This document shows, piece by piece, positions 1,692-32,572 of a stretch of 33,512 bases of DNA. The position numbers and the translations under genes were made by a program. Under the pieces are notes generated by a model. It worked only from the letters and a program-made list of their open reading frames with translations, did not search any database and was not told where the DNA came from. Origin of the DNA: a virus (lineage: Duplodnaviria > Caudoviricetes); the IMG/VR virus record IMGVR_UViG_3300006169_000108, positions 1-33,512 of that record; one strand, written 5' to 3'. The first letter of the stretch is position 1. Each line of letters opens with the position of its first letter.

Positions 1692-1955
1692 TCAGTCCTC
1701 CTCGTCGCGCACAGCGCCGGCCTGCTCGAGTTGGCGCATGTACTCGAACATGCCGAGCGTCTCCCAGGCCTTGATGTCCTTGGAGGTCAACGCCAGTAGT
1801 GCACGCTCGCCGTCGTCGCTTATGACTTCGATCAGGGCGACGTACTTGACCAGCATTGAGCCGTCGAAGGCGCCGACTCGAGTGGCGATGTCGCTGTGCA
1901 CCTGGTCCTTGAGCTCGTCGACTGCGTCCTGGTCTTCCCAGCGGTCGGGGTCCAT
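1692..1955 (-). CDS. Hypothetical acidic protein
   Basis: 87 aa ORF overlapping the portal stop (TGATG). Confidence 0.7.
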   Translation of the reverse strand: MDPDRWEDQDAVDELKDQVHSDIATRVGAFDGSMLVKYVALIEVISDDGERALLALTSKDIKAWETLGMFEYMRQLEQAGAVRDEED

Positions 1956-4561
1956 CAGCCGACTCCCTCGAGCTCGGGTTCCGGATCAACAGCGGGTGTC
2001 GACCACACCGGGGTCGCCATGCACAGACACCCCTGGTGATCACCGGGATGCAGGTACGGACCGATCCACGACGCCTCCGCCCCCGCATCCAGCACCGGGT
2101 CGGTCCACGACGCAAACTCGACCCCGTCCAGGCGCTGGTGCGGAGCGAAATGCGCCCGCGGGTTCGCCGGGTACTCCCACACCCACGTCGCCACCTGCGC
2201 GTCGGCGCCGCGCATCACATCCATCACCTCGATACCCGTCCCAGGCCCGGTCGCCGGACGCACCGGATCACCGGGCCCGCGCACCAGACGCCCGTCGTCG
2301 GCGACACCGGCGGCGTCCTCGGGCAGTCCACCGATCTGGGCGACTGCCCCGCGGATCAGGGAGGCGGGCACCAGGTCCGAGTCCGACTCCGACGGGGCGA
2401 GTCGGCCCTCCCCGTAGAGCACCTCCCGGATCCGTTCCGACAACCGGCCCTTGAGCCACTGCCACGCGTCGCGGGCACGGGCGGTGAGCCGGTCGGCCAG
2501 GCCGCGGGCCTTCCCCGGCCCCGCGATCTGCCCGACCGTCTGCTCCACCGCCTTCGCCGCCGCCGCGGTGTCCCGCTCGAACTGCACCCCGAAGTCGTCG
2601 AGCGCCCCGTTGAGCGCCTCTTCGTCGTCCAACGCGGCCACCAGCGCCCGACCACCCCGGGCGAGGACCTCGCGGGGGTCCGACCCGGCAGGGAACACCG
2701 ACGCGGTCAGCGGGCTCTTGCGGGCCTGGTTGCGCAGCCGGTTCGCGGCCTTCTCCACCGCCCGCCCCACCGTCGCATCGGCGTGGGCGAGCAGCTTGAC
2801 GGTCAGGTCGTGGTCGATCCGCGCGAGCCGCTGCGACGCGCGCGTGTGCACCGTGTCCCGGTCGGTGCGGGTCGCTGAGGCCCGCACCGACTGCGGAGAC
2901 CCCGACGGTGCCGCTGGGCGCGACGGCGGCAACGCCTGCGTACGGTCCCCGGCCCTGTTGACCTCCGGCGGGCGCCCGTTGGCCCGCCCGGTGGCTTCCG
3001 GGCGCTCACCCTGCCCCGCCTCGTCGGGGGCGGTGCCGCCGTGCTTGCTGTAGATCGAGGTGAGCGCGAACCGCATGGCCTGCGCGATGTCGGGGTCGGT
3101 GGCGTCCAAGTTGGACAGCGAGATCAGGATCGGGATCGACGCCTCGTACGCACGCCCGTAGGCCAAGGTGCGGATCAGCTTCTCGCGGTCGGTGGGGGCG
3201 TCCTCCTCGGTGAACCCCAGCGACGCGCGCAGCGCCGCATCCGAGATGGTGCCCGCCTCGTGGGCGTCCTTCGCCGACTGGGCCCGGTCCGGGTCCTGCA
3301 TCAGCTCGGACGGGTCGAACCACAGACAGACCTTCTCCCGCTCCTCGCGGGGGATCCCCATCGCCTTGAGCGCAGGCCACAGGTAGGCCACAGTCAGGGC
3401 GTCGCACATCCGCTCGGCGCGGGGCTCGATGTGCGACTTCACCGTCTCCGCGGAGATGACCGCACCGTTCCAGTGGTTGGTGTCCCCGATCCCGGTGAGC
3501 ACCTCCGGGGGGAGGTCGATGCCGCGGGCCAGGATCGCCACCAGGTTGTCGCGGCGGGTGTCGAGCTCTTTGGGGTCGTCGTTGTGCAGGTCGACGGTGC
3601 CGATGGCGTCTTTCATCAGCGTGGTGCCATCGGTGGTCATCGCCGGACCCCGGATGATCAACGGGACGACCGCCGACGGGTCCGACGGGTCCATGATCGG
3701 GGTCACCATGTACTCGGTGAGCTCGTCCATGAACGGGTCCGCGTCCTCGGCGACCCCGTCGGTGTCCGCCGACACCGGCGCGTTCCCCGCCCGCTGCAGC
3801 GACAGCTCGTCGGGCAGGTAGAGCACCTTGCCCTTGGAGATGCGGGACCGGTCGTGGGCATAGCCGCGGTCCGACAGGGTGTTCATGGCCCGGCACGTCT
3901 TGAGCAGCGCCGCGATCGGGGAGTCGGGCCACAGTTCGTGGCGCGGGTGCGGGTTCCACAACCGCAGCAGCTCGTGACGGCCGGGTACGAGGTCACGCCC
4001 GCCGGCGTTGGTGCCAGGGTCGACCAGCCGCACCGTTTCGTGCCCGATCTGCACCTCAGAGACGGATTTGATCGACCACTGTTCGCCTTCGTCGCCGTCC
4101 TCACCGAGCAGGTAGGCCTCGCCGGCGAACTCGAGGTTCTCCCCCAACCTGGCGAGCAGGGTGGAGCCGTGCTGGTCGAGGTTGAGCCGTGCGCAGGCGG
4201 CGAGGGCGGCCTCGCGGGTGCCGGGTCGAATGTCGGTGTCGACTTCGACCTTGTCGTCGCCCTCGGTCGACCTCGCGCCCGGCGGTCGGTCGAGGGGCTG
4301 GGGGGCGACGCCGCGGGGGCGGCGTTCGGCGGGGAACACCCGCAGCCGGCCCAGGGAGCTGCGCACGAAGCTGGCGACGAACTGGAGCTCGGGAACACTG
4401 TCCCGGTAGGCCCACGCGTCGTCTTGCCATTCGGTGCGCCGGTTGGTGACCGGGGTGGGCCGGGACAGGTCGATGCGCTGCCCGGCGGCGGTCATGGCGC
4501 GCGGGCGTTCCGCGGGCGGGGGGCCGGTGACGGTCTTGGCGAAGTTCTCGAGGAGCCCCAC
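1955..4561 (-). CDS. Portal protein with C-terminal MuF-like (minor head) extension
   Basis: Actinophage portal-like motifs (WQDDAWAY, RLWNPHP, DSP, LARGIDLPPEVLTG, NHW); C-terminal HQRLDG...HPGDHQGCLC resembles the MuF HPxCRC signature. Confidence 0.8.
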   Translation of the reverse strand: MGLLENFAKTVTGPPPAERPRAMTAAGQRIDLSRPTPVTNRRTEWQDDAWAYRDSVPELQFVASFVRSSLGRLRVFPAERRPRGVAPQPLDRPPGARSTEGDDKVEVDTDIRPGTREAALAACARLNLDQHGSTLLARLGENLEFAGEAYLLGEDGDEGEQWSIKSVSEVQIGHETVRLVDPGTNAGGRDLVPGRHELLRLWNPHPRHELWPDSPIAALLKTCRAMNTLSDRGYAHDRSRISKGKVLYLPDELSLQRAGNAPVSADTDGVAEDADPFMDELTEYMVTPIMDPSDPSAVVPLIIRGPAMTTDGTTLMKDAIGTVDLHNDDPKELDTRRDNLVAILARGIDLPPEVLTGIGDTNHWNGAVISAETVKSHIEPRAERMCDALTVAYLWPALKAMGIPREEREKVCLWFDPSELMQDPDRAQSAKDAHEAGTISDAALRASLGFTEEDAPTDREKLIRTLAYGRAYEASIPILISLSNLDATDPDIAQAMRFALTSIYSKHGGTAPDEAGQGERPEATGRANGRPPEVNRAGDRTQALPPSRPAAPSGSPQSVRASATRTDRDTVHTRASQRLARIDHDLTVKLLAHADATVGRAVEKAANRLRNQARKSPLTASVFPAGSDPREVLARGGRALVAALDDEEALNGALDDFGVQFERDTAAAAKAVEQTVGQIAGPGKARGLADRLTARARDAWQWLKGRLSERIREVLYGEGRLAPSESDSDLVPASLIRGAVAQIGGLPEDAAGVADDGRLVRGPGDPVRPATGPGTGIEVMDVMRGADAQVATWVWEYPANPRAHFAPHQRLDGVEFASWTDPVLDAGAEASWIGPYLHPGDHQGCLCMATPVWSTPAVDPEPELEGVG

Positions 4562-4564
4562 GGG

Positions 4565-4912
4565 TCAGGCGACCTCGCGCTCGGCGAGCATTCCGGCCAC
4601 GGTGGACAGCGCCCACGGCATCGCGGCCAGCAGGAACAGATCGCGGTGTCCGCGGCGGTCGGCGAGCTCGGCGAGGCCGGCGACCGCACCAGATGTCCAG
4701 AACCCGAAACACCAGGGGCAGGACCAGAGCATCGCGTACTCGTCGGGGGTGCGCTGGGTCAGCCACTGCCGCAGCCGCACCGCGGGGGGCAGGTCGTCGG
4801 TGGTGACCAGCCGGGTGATGCGATAAGCCGTGAGGGCGGCGAGGGTGACGGTCCACGGATCCCGGGTCCACCGCTGGCGGCGGCCGTGGAGGGCCTCTCG
4901 CAGACTCGTCAC
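4565..4912 (-). CDS. DUF1360-like membrane protein
   Basis: ALTAYRITRLVTTDD...LWSCPWCFGFW motif with hydrophobic segments; GTG start 7 nt after -10 TACCGT. Confidence 0.75.
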   Translation of the reverse strand: MTSLREALHGRRQRWTRDPWTVTLAALTAYRITRLVTTDDLPPAVRLRQWLTQRTPDEYAMLWSCPWCFGFWTSGAVAGLAELADRRGHRDLFLLAAMPWALSTVAGMLAEREVA

Positions 4913-4918
4913 GCTAGG

Positions 4919-4932
4919 GACGGTAGGCAGCC
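4919..4932 (-). promoter_or_regulatory. Putative late promoter element GGCTGCCTACCGTC, copy 2
   Basis: Identical to 245-258; gives a leaderless start at 4912. Confidence 0.6.
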
Positions 4933-4967
4933 AGATGGTTGTGGCCGGGGGTTTTCGTGGGCACCCC

Positions 4968-4995
4968 TTGACACCCCACTGCTTTAGGTTATAGT
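4968..4995 (+). promoter_or_regulatory. Near-consensus housekeeping-sigma promoter TTGACA-N16-TATAGT
   Basis: Read directly; points into a non-coding triple-hairpin segment. Confidence 0.65.
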
Positions 4996-5000
4996 TGAGC

Positions 5001-5086
5001 TTGCCTGTGAGAGGGCAAACCGCCTGTGAGAGGGCGACGACGAAGGCCCCAGGGTTGTGAGAGGCCCCGGGGCCTTCGTCATCTCT
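5001..5086 (+). ncRNA. Candidate triple-hairpin small RNA with three GUGAGA loops
   Basis: Hairpins 5001-5018, 5021-5036 and 5039-5080, each with loop GTGAGA closed by U-G; the third stem differs in sequence but still pairs; upstream promoter; the last long stem can act as terminator. Confidence 0.6.
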
Positions 5087-5345
5087 AACGCCGCTTCCGG
5101 CCCCCACGGCGACGACGAGCACCGGCGTACTTCCCCGTCGCCTCCTTGTGCCGCAGATTGCAGTACCCACGAGCCTGCGCCGTCGTCATGTGCTTACTGA
5201 CCCGCCGCACACAGGTGTAGAAGTCACCCGACTTGCCGTGACGACCCCACTTGACCCCGGAACGCTTCCCGTGCTTCGTGCCCCGGTTGTTCCAGTACCT
5301 GCGCAGCGTCGCCGCGTTACCGCCACGCCCACGTCGCCTCGCCAT
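5085..5345 (-). CDS. Small basic protein with conserved Cys/His core
   Basis: MARRRGRGG...LRRYW...KWG...GDFYTC...GYCNLRHKEATGKY...RRRRGGRKRR. Confidence 0.75.
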   Translation of the reverse strand: MARRRGRGGNAATLRRYWNNRGTKHGKRSGVKWGRHGKSGDFYTCVRRVSKHMTTAQARGYCNLRHKEATGKYAGARRRRGGRKRR

Positions 5346-5527
5346 CACGCACCACCCATCGCCGCGTGCGCCGCACACCCCAGGCACACCACCAACCCGA
5401 TGTTCGAGTCCTCGGCGAGCGGCACATGCATGTACCCCTCCCCCGCCTCGAGCCCGCACCGGCAGTCGCCGCAAAGCTCATCACCAGCAGCGGTCCACAC
5501 ACCGGTCACCAGCGGGGTGTCGTTCAC
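5345..5527 (-). CDS. Small zinc-binding hypothetical protein
   Basis: CGDC...CLGC; coupled start and stop with neighbours. Confidence 0.6.
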   Translation of the reverse strand: MNDTPLVTGVWTAAGDELCGDCRCGLEAGEGYMHVPLAEDSNIGLVVCLGCAAHAAMGGA

Positions 5528-15500: not shown

Positions 15501-15626
15501 GCCTTATAGTTTAGGGCATAGCGGGGTGTTGGGCAACCCCTTGATGTCCCCACCCCCACCTGCTACGCTCTACGGTGTACGGGCAGTGTGCCCGTCCCTC
15601 TCACAGCACAGCAAGGACTCCCTCTC

Positions 15627-16820
15627 ATGGACACCCTCACCCTGCCCACGCAGACCCGCATCACCAAGGAGCAGCAGCGCCTCAACGAGATCGAGGCGAT
15701 CTTCCGCCGCTTCATGCACTTCCCCCACGAGCACGCCTACACGGTCGCCACCCTGTGGGTCGCCCACACCCACCTGCGCGACAAGGAAGAGAACTTCCTT
15801 CCCTACGTCACGCCCCGCCTGTATTTCGGTTCGAAGCGACCCGGTTGCGGCAAGACGCAAGCCATGGAACTCGCCGCGCTGATGAGCTTCAACGGCGAGC
15901 TCACGCTGAACCCCACCGAGCCGGGCCTGGTGTCCAAGTTCCACAACGACAAGGCCACCGTGTGCCTCACCGAGATCGACAAGTTTTTCGGTGAGCGCGG
16001 CGGATCGAAGGAGGGCCACAAGGCCGTCATCAACGGCGGCTACCGCCGCAACGCCACCGTGGACCGTGAGCGGGGCGGTGTGACCGAGAAGCGCCGCATC
16101 CACGGGCCGATGGCGCTGGACGGCAAGAACGCCAAGCGCTTCCTGGAGGAGGACGGCCCGTTCGACGCCGTCCGTAGCCGCTCGATTGCGATCATCTTGG
16201 ACCGCAAGCCGGACGACGTGCACGTCGCCGAATACGACCCGCAGCGCGACGAGCAGCGGCTGCGTGCGATTTCGGCTCGCCTGGCCGAGTGGGGCACCCG
16301 CAACGCCCGCCACATCCTGGCGCGCAACATCAACCCGCTGGTCCCCGCCGGCATCAAAAACCGCGACAAGGAAACGTGGCGCGTGCTGTTCCAGGTGGCC
16401 GCGCATGTGGGCGGCGAGTGGGTCGACCGTGTCACGGCCGCCGCGCGGGCGATCGTGCTGGGTGAGTGGGGCGACGACGCGCCCCGCAAGCTGTCCTACG
16501 CCGAGGAGCTTCTCGCCGCCGCACGCGGCGCCTACAGCCCGGATGAGCACTTCCTGCCCACCCGCACCCTCGTGGCCCGCCTGATGGGCGTTGACGGGTG
16601 GTGGCGTCAGGAGTGGTGCTCGCCGCGCGCCGCCTCGATGTCGCTGGCCGACGAGCTGGGCACGTTCGGGGTGGCGGCCACCCGCGAGTACGTGGACGGC
16701 CGCCAGGAACGTGGCTACGCGCTGCTCGAGCTGCTGGACGTCGACGACGAGCCCGAGCCCGAGGACGAGCCGGTGGTGGATGTGGCCGAGTGGGACTGGT
16801 CCGAGCTCGACGACGAGTGA
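15627..16820 (+). CDS. DUF3631-type P-loop ATPase / helicase-like protein
   Basis: LWVAHTH, TPRLYFGSKRPGCGKT (Walker A), CLTEID (degenerate Walker B), INGGY, SRSI, C-terminal wHTH-like region ending RGY. Confidence 0.75.
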   Translation: MDTLTLPTQTRITKEQQRLNEIEAIFRRFMHFPHEHAYTVATLWVAHTHLRDKEENFLPYVTPRLYFGSKRPGCGKTQAMELAALMSFNGELTLNPTEPGLVSKFHNDKATVCLTEIDKFFGERGGSKEGHKAVINGGYRRNATVDRERGGVTEKRRIHGPMALDGKNAKRFLEEDGPFDAVRSRSIAIILDRKPDDVHVAEYDPQRDEQRLRAISARLAEWGTRNARHILARNINPLVPAGIKNRDKETWRVLFQVAAHVGGEWVDRVTAAARAIVLGEWGDDAPRKLSYAEELLAAARGAYSPDEHFLPTRTLVARLMGVDGWWRQEWCSPRAASMSLADELGTFGVAATREYVDGRQERGYALLELLDVDDEPEPEDEPVVDVAEWDWSELDDE

Positions 16821-16866
16821 GACAACCAAGACAACCTCGCGTCGGCAAGACAACCAAGACAACCTC
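16820..16866 (+). repeat. 19-bp direct repeat AGACAACCAAGACAACCTC x2 (four AGACAACC units)
   Basis: 16820-16838 and 16848-16866. Confidence 0.85.
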
Positions 16867-16882
16867 ACGCAAGGAGACCTCG

Positions 16883-17062
16883 ATGAGCATCCCCGCAGAC
16901 CACGTCCGTGTCGGCGACCGTGTCGCCACCCTGGGCCGGGTTACCGCCATCAGCTACGGCGGGCACTGGACGATCCTGACCACCGCTGCCGGCGACTTCC
17001 TCGCCAACGGGTCGATCGTCAACCTGGACCGGCATAGCGCGGTGCATCTGCGCCGGGCGTGA
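16883..17062 (+). CDS. Small hypothetical protein
   Basis: AAGGAG RBS; MSIPADHVRVGDRV... Confidence 0.7.
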   Translation: MSIPADHVRVGDRVATLGRVTAISYGGHWTILTTAAGDFLANGSIVNLDRHSAVHLRRA

Positions 17063-17136: not shown

Positions 17137-17424
17137 ATGAGCAAGAGGACCCGCCGCCGCCGCCCCTTCGCCACCCGCGACGCCAGCACCGGCGCCACCC
17201 TCCTCATCCTCTGGGCCCTCCTCGTCGCCCCCTTCTACGTCTGCTACTGGCTCATCGCCGGCCCCATCAAGCTCGTCATCTGGGCCGTGCGACAGATCAA
17301 CGAAGGCGACGCACGCCACCGCGCACGCACCGGCACCCTCACCTACGCAGACCTCCGCAACGACGCCGAACGCGCCGCGTGGAACCAGGCCTACGCAGCC
17401 CAACTCGCCCGCCAGACCCGCTGA
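17137..17424 (+). CDS. Small membrane protein
   Basis: Hydrophobic stretch LLILWALLVAPFYVCYWLIAG; leaderless start. Confidence 0.7.
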   Translation: MSKRTRRRRPFATRDASTGATLLILWALLVAPFYVCYWLIAGPIKLVIWAVRQINEGDARHRARTGTLTYADLRNDAERAAWNQAYAAQLARQTR

Positions 17425-17444
17425 CCCCACACAGGGAGACCGAC

Positions 17445-17615
17445 ATGAACCCCAACCGCGAAATCCCCAGCGGCCTGCGCTGCCACGACTGCGGCGAAAA
17501 CCTCTCCAGCGTCGTCCACAACGGCTGGGCCACCCTCATCCACACCAGCCACCGCACCGACCACCCCGTCCGCTACCGCGTCACCGCCCAAGCCTGGACG
17601 CAGGCCGGCCGCTAG
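17445..17615 (+). CDS. Small CxxC protein
   Basis: GGGAG RBS; CHDC. Confidence 0.65.
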   Translation: MNPNREIPSGLRCHDCGENLSSVVHNGWATLIHTSHRTDHPVRYRVTAQAWTQAGR

Positions 17616-17649
17616 ACCCGCTGACCCCTCACAGACAGGAGCACCGACC

Positions 17650-17823
17650 ATGACCGGCCTCGAAGCCCTCACCCCCTACGAGCTCGCCATGACCTACCGC
17701 GACGTCGCCACCGAACGCTGCACCACCTGGGAGCAGGACGACCGCCGGCAGCGCTACCTCGCCCGCATCAGCGCCGAAATGGACCGGCGTGACGTCCGAC
17801 TCGAGGACTGGGCCGGGCTGTAA
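17650..17823 (+). CDS. Small hypothetical protein (57 aa), absent from the ORF track
   Basis: AGGAG RBS; MTGLEALTPYELAMTYRDVA...DWAGL. Confidence 0.7.
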   Translation: MTGLEALTPYELAMTYRDVATERCTTWEQDDRRQRYLARISAEMDRRDVRLEDWAGL

Positions 17824-17875: not shown

Positions 17876-18011
17876 GTCTACGGGTCGGCGTCGTGTCGAC
17901 GCGTGGCTGTAGAACGTGCGGACGACGTCTAAGTGGGAGTGGACTCCCCTATCTCCGTATGCTATGCTCTAAATCAGCACGCAGGACAGGCCCTCTCGCT
18001 AGGAGAAGAAC

Positions 18012-18149
18012 ATGCTCGAGCACTTCGTTCTCGTCCACGCCGGCAGTGGGCGCGCCCTCTACGCGCACCCCAGCTTGGCGGCAGCCAAGGCGCAGCTCGC
18101 CGCCGAGTTCAGCCCCGGTCACGTCGTCATCGAGCGTCGCTGGCTCTAG
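18012..18149 (+). CDS. Small hypothetical protein (45 aa), absent from the ORF track
   Basis: AGGAG RBS; MLEHFVLVHAGSGRALYAHPSLAAAKAQL...RRWL. Confidence 0.65.
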   Translation: MLEHFVLVHAGSGRALYAHPSLAAAKAQLAAEFSPGHVVIERRWL

Positions 18150-18197: not shown

Positions 18198-18247
18198 CCT
18201 CGCCAGCCGACACCAACCAGCACCCGCCCTCTCACGCAGGAGAAACC

Positions 18248-18415
18248 ATGCAGGTCCAGTACCAGGTCCGCAGCAACGCCGGCCAGGTCATGTACCAGTC
18301 CCCCGACGTCGATGACGCCCAGGACAGCGCCGACGACTACGCCGCCCAGGGCTGGCGCGTGTATGTCACGTTCGTCGAGCTCATCGACGGCCAGTGGGTC
18401 GCCCAGGAGGACTGA
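18248..18415 (+). CDS. Small hypothetical protein
   Basis: AGGAG RBS; MQVQYQVRSN... Confidence 0.7.
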   Translation: MQVQYQVRSNAGQVMYQSPDVDDAQDSADDYAAQGWRVYVTFVELIDGQWVAQED

Positions 18416-18459
18416 CCACCCCCGCACACCTTCCGCCCCTCTCACCAGCAGGAGAAATC

Positions 18460-18699
18460 ATGAGCCAGAACTCGCACACCACCCGCATCAACCAGACCGC
18501 CGAGTTCCTCCCGCAGACCAACGACGACGAGCGGCCGGCCCTCCGCGTCAACGACGCGCTCGTCTTCGCCTACCTCACCGAGGACGACGGGGGCAACGTC
18601 GTCCTGCGCGTCACCGTGGACCTCGACGACGTGGAGCTCGACGGGGCACCCCTGGGTGTCCAGGTCGCGGTGGGCGACGAGGTGGTCTACGAGGCCTGA
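18460..18699 (+). CDS. Small acidic hypothetical protein
   Basis: AGGAG RBS; MSQNSHTTRIN... Confidence 0.7.
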   Translation: MSQNSHTTRINQTAEFLPQTNDDERPALRVNDALVFAYLTEDDGGNVVLRVTVDLDDVELDGAPLGVQVAVGDEVVYEA

Positions 18700-32223: not shown

Positions 32224-32357
32224 CGCTTCACCCGCCACGGACCGGTGGGATCCCACGACGCGTTCGCCGCGCTCAACGTGGGATGCCCCGGGTGCGCGCA
32301 ATGCCGGCCGTACGACAGGCCGCTGACCCGCCACCACAAGCGGCGCAGGACGCTCAC
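32220..32357 (-). CDS. Small hypothetical protein
   Basis: GTGA overlaps on both sides. Confidence 0.45.
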   Translation of the reverse strand: MSVLRRLWWRVSGLSYGRHCAHPGHPTLSAANASWDPTGPWRVKR

Positions 32358-32497
32358 GACGAGCTCGCCAGCGGCGGGCAGTCGTCCCACGACCACGTGA
32401 CGGCTTCGGTGCGGCGACGCTGCCAATCCAGCACCACACCCACCGGCACCGTCACGATCTGCGCCAACAGCGCCATCGGTAGAACTAGCAGGCCCAT
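32354..32497 (-). CDS. Small hydrophobic protein (47 aa), absent from the ORF track
   Basis: GGAG RBS; MGLLVLPMALLAQIVTVPVGVVLDWQRRR... Confidence 0.5.
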   Translation of the reverse strand: MGLLVLPMALLAQIVTVPVGVVLDWQRRRTEAVTWSWDDCPPLASSS

Positions 32498-32572
32498 GAG
32501 CGGGTCTCCAATCAGGTGAGAGGGGAAGGTGGCCGGGGCGTCCCGCGGGGGGTGTCGGAACGCCCCGACCGT

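Follow-up and report, generated by a model that had tools for sequence, protein, structure and literature searches.

A three-hairpin element in an uncultured actinophage as a candidate small RNA with loops complementary to a tag beside early-gene ribosome-binding sites

The loops of the actinobacterial 6C/B11 RNAs are described as repressing through ribosome-binding sites without the aid of chaperones (PMC6486639, PMC10470900), and the cuckoo RNAs, among them RSs0680/CcsR, alpha-r14 and SmelA075/099, are described as sets of two to four adjacent hairpins with an identical loop on variable stems (PMC4615179). In phages P1 and P7, the C4 RNA is an RNA of about 80 nt with three stem-loops, the loops of which pair beside the ribosome-binding site of a phage target (PMC5320573), and the CI RNA of P4 is reported to cause termination at seqA and seqC (PMC4825925). 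The phage small RNAs covered by the main text of a dedicated review come from Proteobacteria and cyanobacteria, with the names Streptomyces and Mycobacteri- absent from that text, and its Table S1 lists 38 uncharacterised phage sRNAs that may bear on the novelty of any new candidate (PMC12197685). A further element of actinophages is the SAS of cluster K mycobacteriophages and cluster EF Microbacterium phages, described as a short asymmetric repeat in a single orientation (PMC3203893, PMC7302621); it is placed at the starts of non-structural genes, an RNA partner being named as one possibility (PMC3203893), and papers from 2024-2025 still describe the function of such repeats in actinophages as unknown (PMC11373665, PMC12699233).

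The locus described here belongs to a virus record of 33.5 kb and 69.5% G+C, the whole of which is the stretch analysed and is referred to as the window. Its minus strand carries genes for a head protease, portal, terminase, HNH nucleases, RusA, helicase, primase and exonuclease. A block of plus-strand genes from 15.6 to 18.7 kb starts with a DUF3631 gene, and the right end carries divergent HTH genes according to PHROG and Pfam, with several HTH proteins encoded by the phage. Because the cultured phages with related portal proteins are actinophages at about 25-33% identity (among the 40 of 877 matches listed), the window is, judging by its portal, an uncultured actinophage. Since no integrase was seen in the 33.5-kb fragment, it is only the divergent HTH gene pair that would point to a temperate lifestyle and lysogeny; for the gene labelled as xis-like in the first-pass annotation, PHROG and Pfam give no match. 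The minus-strand gene at 12534-13076 matches RNase E in PHROG (phrog_645) and weakly HTH and sigma-70 region 4 in Pfam, and its location upstream of the terminase suggests a regulator or a small terminase. Two consecutive small genes share a duplicated leader (17415-17445 and 17615-17650) that begins at the previous stop, suggestive of a cassette duplication. Only two close relatives with the region were found, denoted G001 and L033.

The element is headed by a near-consensus SigA/sigma-70-type promoter on the plus strand at 4968-4995, with the -35 hexamer TTGACA at 4968-4973, a 16-nt spacer and the -10 hexamer TATAGT at 4990-4995; noticed already on first inspection, it is the sole sigma-70-type match (11/12) in two scans spanning the whole 33.5-kb window, and its predicted transcription start lies at about 5001-5003. 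The first-pass annotation had placed this promoter antisense to the head operon, a description that has to be revised. As a conserved late motif precedes the DUF1360 start, the DUF1360-portal head operon on the minus strand (DUF1360 at 4565-4912 on the left flank, then the portal at 1955-4561) probably has a leaderless promoter of its own at 4920-4961, back-to-back with and divergent from the small-RNA promoter, and the convergence of the latter is limited to the upstream late genes. The motif, CCCAYG.A-N~25-CTACCGT, ends in the -10-like TACCGT 7 nt before the DUF1360 start codon and is present twice in the window (4920-4961 and about 246-287, both minus strand), once in G001 (116131, minus strand) and twice in L033 (572 and 1156, plus strand), against shuffle means of 0-0.06, lying 6-7 nt ahead of start codons in four of the five cases. 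On the right flank, the element meets a convergent minus-strand gene at 5085-5474 with a match to phrog_6439. The plus-strand block likewise has several SigA-like promoters, some of them leaderless.

Directly behind the promoter, the plus strand is predicted to fold into three hairpins, at 5001-5018 (loop GUGAGA at 5007-5012, 5′ arm CCUG), 5021-5036 (loop GUGAGA at 5026-5031, with the best predicted duplexes) and 5039-5080, the last of which combines a long terminator-type outer stem with a re-paired inner stem around the loop GUGAGA at 5057-5062 and is located 5 nt beyond the stop codon of the convergent gene. Each loop is closed by a U-G pair, so that the predicted fold agrees with the three hairpins first read from the sequence, as does the divergent but still paired third stem, where the inner pairing survives two changes, C-G to G-C and C-G to U-G, around a constant loop. 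The plus-strand fold has z-scores of -4.8 and -5.1, with 0/200 shuffles as good, but the minus strand reaches a lower fold energy (-54.5 vs -51.6) and a z-score of -6.9. Since folding alone cannot choose the strand, the plus strand is preferred because of the promoter, the U-G pairs that close the loops and the orthologue in L033. The segment had also been called ORF-free, which is not strictly so, as frames of 17, 20 and 47 codons open with GTG codons in the loops; however, coding-type GC3 is absent from the two frames measured (20 and 47 codons, 0.55 and 0.68), and by eye no start codon follows the matching loop in L033, so a small peptide translated from the loop GTG codons was rejected.

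Hairpin 3 is probably the 3′ end of the RNA, as modelled, and possibly a bidirectional terminator. Its outer stem recurs widely in phages and is for that reason best taken as one of terminator type, which would here carry a third seed loop: the outer-stem pattern was found at 43 viral loci in IMG/VR, all of them lacking a promoter match in the 110 nt upstream, and several of the 43 matched loops contain TGTGAG, although TGT was required by the search pattern. The RNA family had not been recognised initially, and a covariance-model search of the window against Rfam likewise yields no family for the element at the gathering score and generic hairpins only among matches at E<=10. No tRNA or tmRNA was detected at default settings, and the 116 calls made in the window by a relaxed ARAGORN run were discarded as noise. 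In one DNA sequencing run, pieces of a close relative are present, none of them spanning hairpins 1-2, and matches over hairpin 3 come from otherwise unlike contigs.

As read here, the element works like 6C/B11, is built like the cuckoo RNAs and has a phage role like that ascribed to C4 and CI (PMC5320573, PMC4825925, PMC2864571), while it departs from each of them in loop sequence or covariance model. With 6C/B11 (RF01066), as those RNAs are described, it shares the host phylum, the form of a small multi-hairpin RNA, redundant loops directed near the ribosome-binding sites of many mRNAs and the probable independence of a chaperone. The loops of the element, however, are purine-rich GUGAGA, three in number and phage-encoded, and match a private pyrimidine tag upstream of the Shine-Dalgarno (SD) sequence, whereas the 6C/B11 loops are said to address the G-rich SD tracts. 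The two hairpins with loops of about six C that define 6C are not seen in the window, L033 has one such loop only, and the 6C covariance model (cut-off 47 bits) has no match in the window either at gathering or at E<=10. The cuckoo RNAs appear to be the closest in architecture, since adjacent hairpins with the same loop on variable stems make up the window element as well; their loops are described as CCUCCUCCC (anti-SD) and belong to alphaproteobacterial genomes, in contrast to GUGAGA loops in an actinophage with a tag of its own, and CCUCCUCCC is absent from the element. The likeness to C4 (RF01695) consists in complementarity only, between the loops and sites at phage ribosome-binding regions. 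C4 is described as cut by RNase P from a precursor and as having two different loops, a′ and b′, whereas the element has its own promoter and three identical loops, arranged as three separate hairpins directly behind that promoter and not in the closed three-stem fold, and the C4 model RF01695 has no match in the window. From C4 and CI alike, the element further differs by its dispersed targets, its own promoter and the lack of an Rfam match. The literature searched, which comprised few subscription papers and no supplements (such as Pope 2011 Fig. S3 or the Adephagia RNA-seq tracks), held no description of this RNA or of an anti-SAS RNA, and the element may represent loop-seeded anti-RBS regulation in a new form, for which a mechanism and timing are proposed below.

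The complement of the loop, CCCTCTCAC, is the top 8-mer of the leaders, and with the element masked, CCTCTCAC and CCCTCTCA emerge de novo as the two best 8-mers of the predicted leaders. The resulting tag is a 9-mer located at -31 to -13, the SD excluded. Copy number alone is marginal, with CCTCTCA observed 8 times against a mean of 4.1 and the same count reached by 5/100 shuffles, and the significance of the tag therefore lies in its position. Four of the five CCCTCTCA copies outside the element fall in the pre-SD slot, which makes up 1.2% of positions (binomial p ~1e-7, and Poisson 9e-9 under the slot's own composition), bearing out the position beside Shine-Dalgarno sequences that had been noted, and the fifth overlaps the DUF3631 start codon. 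When the letters of the tag were permuted, 2/168 permutations reached four slot matches, both being forms of the motif itself. The six strong sites all lie in sense orientation, and the two that deviate (17990 and 15620) are G-U compatible, which, as this would arise by chance in an estimated 7% or so of cases, lends the pairing weak support. Most nearby early genes have no tag or are leaderless. The motif totals 9 copies in 33.5 kb, the element included, none of them in the HTH-HTH region, and every copy is co-oriented with the flanking genes, as are the three of the element in the minus-strand reading. Like SAS, the tag is asymmetric, in one orientation and at the starts of non-structural genes; SAS, however, is described as a 13-bp sequence that includes the SD (AGGAG) and lies 3-9 bp before the start, whereas the tag is a different 9-mer upstream of the SD. 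The stoperators of cluster A phages are many 13-bp directional sites bound by the immunity repressor, the control region included; the window motif is directional, has 9 bp and, as noted, occurs in 9 copies with none between the HTH genes.

All the candidate target sites listed in the first-pass annotation are present. Ahead of the DUF3631 gene (15627-16820), an 11-nt match at 15596-15606 on the plus strand, at -31 to -21, immediately follows a leader hairpin, with a SigA-like promoter further upstream at 15541, and a second site at 15620-15628 with one G-U overlaps the start codon. Three more plus-strand sites precede small ORFs: 17990-17999 (one G-U) before the ORF at 18012-18149, the top-ranked 18225-18236 before 18248-18415, and 18437-18445 before 18460-18699. 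The duplexes predicted for hairpins 1 and 2 extend from the tag over three SD bases at the first two of these ORFs, and that of hairpin 1 reaches over two SD bases at 18460. The only minus-strand site, 32516-32524, is located at -27 to -19 of the ORF at 32354-32497, in the operon behind an HTH (Cro-like) gene; it follows a long hairpin, and neither hairpin 1 nor hairpin 2 has a predicted SD overlap there. The sites at 15596 and 32524 lie 6-7 nt upstream of the SD. Two weaker plus-strand variants occur where they had been reported but have true mismatches and weak predicted binding, so that 16863-16870 before the ORF at 16883-17062 (ddG -3.4) is a doubtful target and 17625-17636 before 17650-17823 (ddG -7.5) a possible minor one. 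In a ranking that scanned both strands, charged the opening cost of both RNAs and scored 113 candidate helices, the tag sites take ranks 1, 2, 4, 6, 7 and 10 among distinct sites at -9.7 to -6.1 kcal/mol, interleaved in the top ten with non-tag sites at 432, 6210, 22184 and 12643. The net predicted binding at the tag sites is modest.

At sequence level, the feature is real, and it is most likely a small-RNA gene with a matching tag; given that the loop shared by its hairpins complements a tag next to the ribosome-binding sites of five putative early genes, it is likely a small RNA that turns these genes down together. We assign a probability of roughly 0.55 to a stand-alone trans-acting small RNA of about 80-86 nt that would pair beside the SD and repress translation of five putative early genes. 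The plus-strand gene is backed by an orthologue with the same promoter and 3′ stem, and the complementarity to start-proximal tags by position statistics and target ranking, while repression is favoured because the predicted duplexes extend over the SD at three sites and the second DUF3631 site covers the start codon. Host SigA polymerase would transcribe the RNA from 4968-4995 and hairpin 3 would end it, as the motifs and the conservation in L033 suggest. An exposed GUGAGA loop would then seed on the computed complement CUCAC of a leader, the short stem is predicted to open with CCC captured by GGG, and the 5′ arm CCUG is predicted to reach the AGG of the SD at 18012, 18248 and 18460. The consequence would be a joint fall in 30S loading on DUF3631 and four small ORFs, with the three loops raising the hit rate and a chaperone probably unneeded, by analogy with 6C RNA. 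The most likely use would be the damping or shutting off of early genes under host-type promoters, either in a lysogen or as infection proceeds. If this is true, a multivalent RNA controls a dispersed phage regulon via a private tag, which makes precise predictions for compensatory mutations, and its design would be that of a compact, probably chaperone-free riboregulator for Actinobacteria.

The orthologue in L033 (73% DUF1360 identity), known from a 3.5-kb contig without early genes, keeps both promoter hexamers with identical spacing and the outer 3′ stem, and its putative U-G-rich RNA has two hairpins with the U-G-closed loops GUGGAA and UCCCCC that fold better on the promoter strand (z -4.2 vs -2.5). 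Since promoter and 3′ stem are kept and the loops differ, this conservation supports an RNA gene with variable loops. The 3′ hairpin of L033 (1017-1062, minus strand) scores 30.5 bits against 6C RNA (E 0.26), below the cut-off of 47; it resembles the second hairpin of 6C RNA and Scr3202 and is possibly a phage copy of a host seed. On the plus strand, at about 925-1012, a T-arm-like sequence ends near this opposite-strand hairpin; default ARAGORN finds no tRNA in it. G001 (69% portal identity) has an apparent small basic-protein gene at the position of the element, neither the element nor the tag in its leaders, and a different repeated hairpin-plus-box in its DUF3631 leader. This G001 repeat comprises two near-identical 63-nt leaders (C1:122519-122581 and 122911-122971), each a hairpin with a CGTTCCCCGCC box, before DUF3631 and the gene upstream; the box has no further exact copy in G001 on either strand. 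The ends of the same 138.8-kb record recur near 71-72 kb, and it may have been joined in assembly; at C1:41900-46500 it has eight similar SigA-like promoters with the -10 TATGCT, five of the eight leaderless with identical first codons.

The same RNA and the same pairing might instead activate its targets, if UCUC of the tag pairs in cis with a GAGA near the SD, and the RNA then makes the ribosome site accessible. This merits some weight because holding the tag lowers the predicted SD opening cost by about 2 kcal/mol in 5/7 leaders, and GAGA lies 5-9 nt after the tag in four leaders; the cis helices, however, have only about 4 bp, and only a minority of leaders include them in the predicted minimum-energy fold. 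The duplexes predicted for hairpins 1 and 2 reach the SD itself, and 30S binding should be impeded by a duplex as close as 0-2 nt to the SD, all of which makes activation unlikely, if worth keeping in mind. It is also unlikely that the RNA, although real, has its main targets elsewhere, in a competing phage or among host mRNAs, or that it is a remnant at a small-RNA locus that is hypervariable, the leader match being secondary. The loops of the two orthologues do differ completely, the 30.5-bit hairpin of L033 would be a host-type seed despite scoring below 47, and the 3′ stem is a generic phage hairpin in which TGTGAG loops recur, their TGT being imposed by the pattern, but such a reading leaves unexplained why the loop complement is the top leader motif of the genome.

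Two further explanations dispense with the pairing. A phage protein could bind the 9-bp motif as DNA, in the manner of an operator or stoperator, with the three copies of the element as tandem operators, which would fit the uniform orientation of all copies relative to the flanking genes, the position of three copies about 15-45 nt behind SigA-like promoters, and the several HTH proteins encoded. We regard this as quite unlikely: each element copy sits exactly in a hairpin loop with re-paired stems, L033 keeps promoter and structure and not the motif, the divergent HTH-HTH control region has no copy, and the site is short and asymmetric with wobble-type deviations. Least probable, and very unlikely overall, is a decoy array, in which the hairpins titrate an RNA-binding protein or, through the SD-like GAGAGGG, the 30S subunit, or a minus-strand transcript with three tags titrates a tag-binding protein. 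Identical loops on variable stems do resemble protein-binding hairpin arrays such as CsrB and boxB, GAGAGG occurs at SD positions in the G003 and G004 loci, and the minus strand folds well. The protein decoy put forward in the first-pass annotation is nevertheless weak for the plus-strand RNA, as that RNA carries the complement of the leader tag and cannot mimic the tag; its SD-like bases are moreover half buried in stems, and transcription of the head operon seems to begin further downstream, at a promoter of its own.

Beyond the repressing small RNA favoured for the window, a wider generalisation is offered as tentative, namely that actinophages have reprogrammable RNA-only master regulators, built as a promoter-hairpin-terminator cassette whose swapped or multiplied loops (three GUGAGA here, GUGGAA and a 6C-like loop in the relative) address a private early-leader tag, with the SAS of cluster K as the same kind of tag and an antisense RNA near the right genome end. 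A single reversed SAS without a gene was described by Pope et al. in K1 phages (PMC3203893). In Anaya (L042:34780-34905, in the gene 96-97 gap), the reversed SAS is found in the open loop of a long hairpin. A structured RNA is present behind a TAGACT -10-like hexamer in 12/12 cluster K loci examined, these being Anaya and 11 others (L060-L070) picked from 193 matching records, and the loop of its third hairpin is anti-SAS in some: within one mismatch in 4/12, replaced by a related pyrimidine loop in 3/12 and without either in 5/12. Paired changes on both sides affect 12/33 pairs, above 500/500 shuffles and all slid controls, in an alignment of 9/12 loci that leaves out three divergent ones and in which kinship, and the derivation of the structure from the same alignment, inflate the covariation. 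Instead of being a free RNA, the hairpin may serve as the leader of the downstream gene. It offers a cultured system for testing the loop-versus-tag principle, with an anti-SAS loop that is not universal, and, if the generalisation is true, an RNA partner for SAS that could be tested in cultured cluster K phages.

Searches for further members gave little beyond these loci. Pattern searches of IMG/VR returned 6 and 10 matches, mostly tandem repeats and none with the promoter-hairpin layout, further patterns 0 matches, and another 4 AT-rich chance matches; GTDB yielded no portal relative and 23 pattern matches, again mostly tandem repeats and none with a promoter match, and cultured phages gave only short fringe matches. 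Five distant DUF1360 loci have no such promoter, and 0/5 records contain the exact promoter pattern. A de novo search for tag and hairpin pairs, which with a looser start filter recovered Anaya, the window tag and, of the three window hairpins, hairpin 3 but not 1-2, yielded no convincing pair in any of the four other records (G001-G004), and the candidate hairpins it proposed in G004 were rejected, as they lie within an apparent coding repeat. On the minus strand of G004 (C1:14400-23300), about eight leaders carry TCAGCCC before the SD, mostly as GGGC-N3-TCAGCCC, a small hairpin-like tag.
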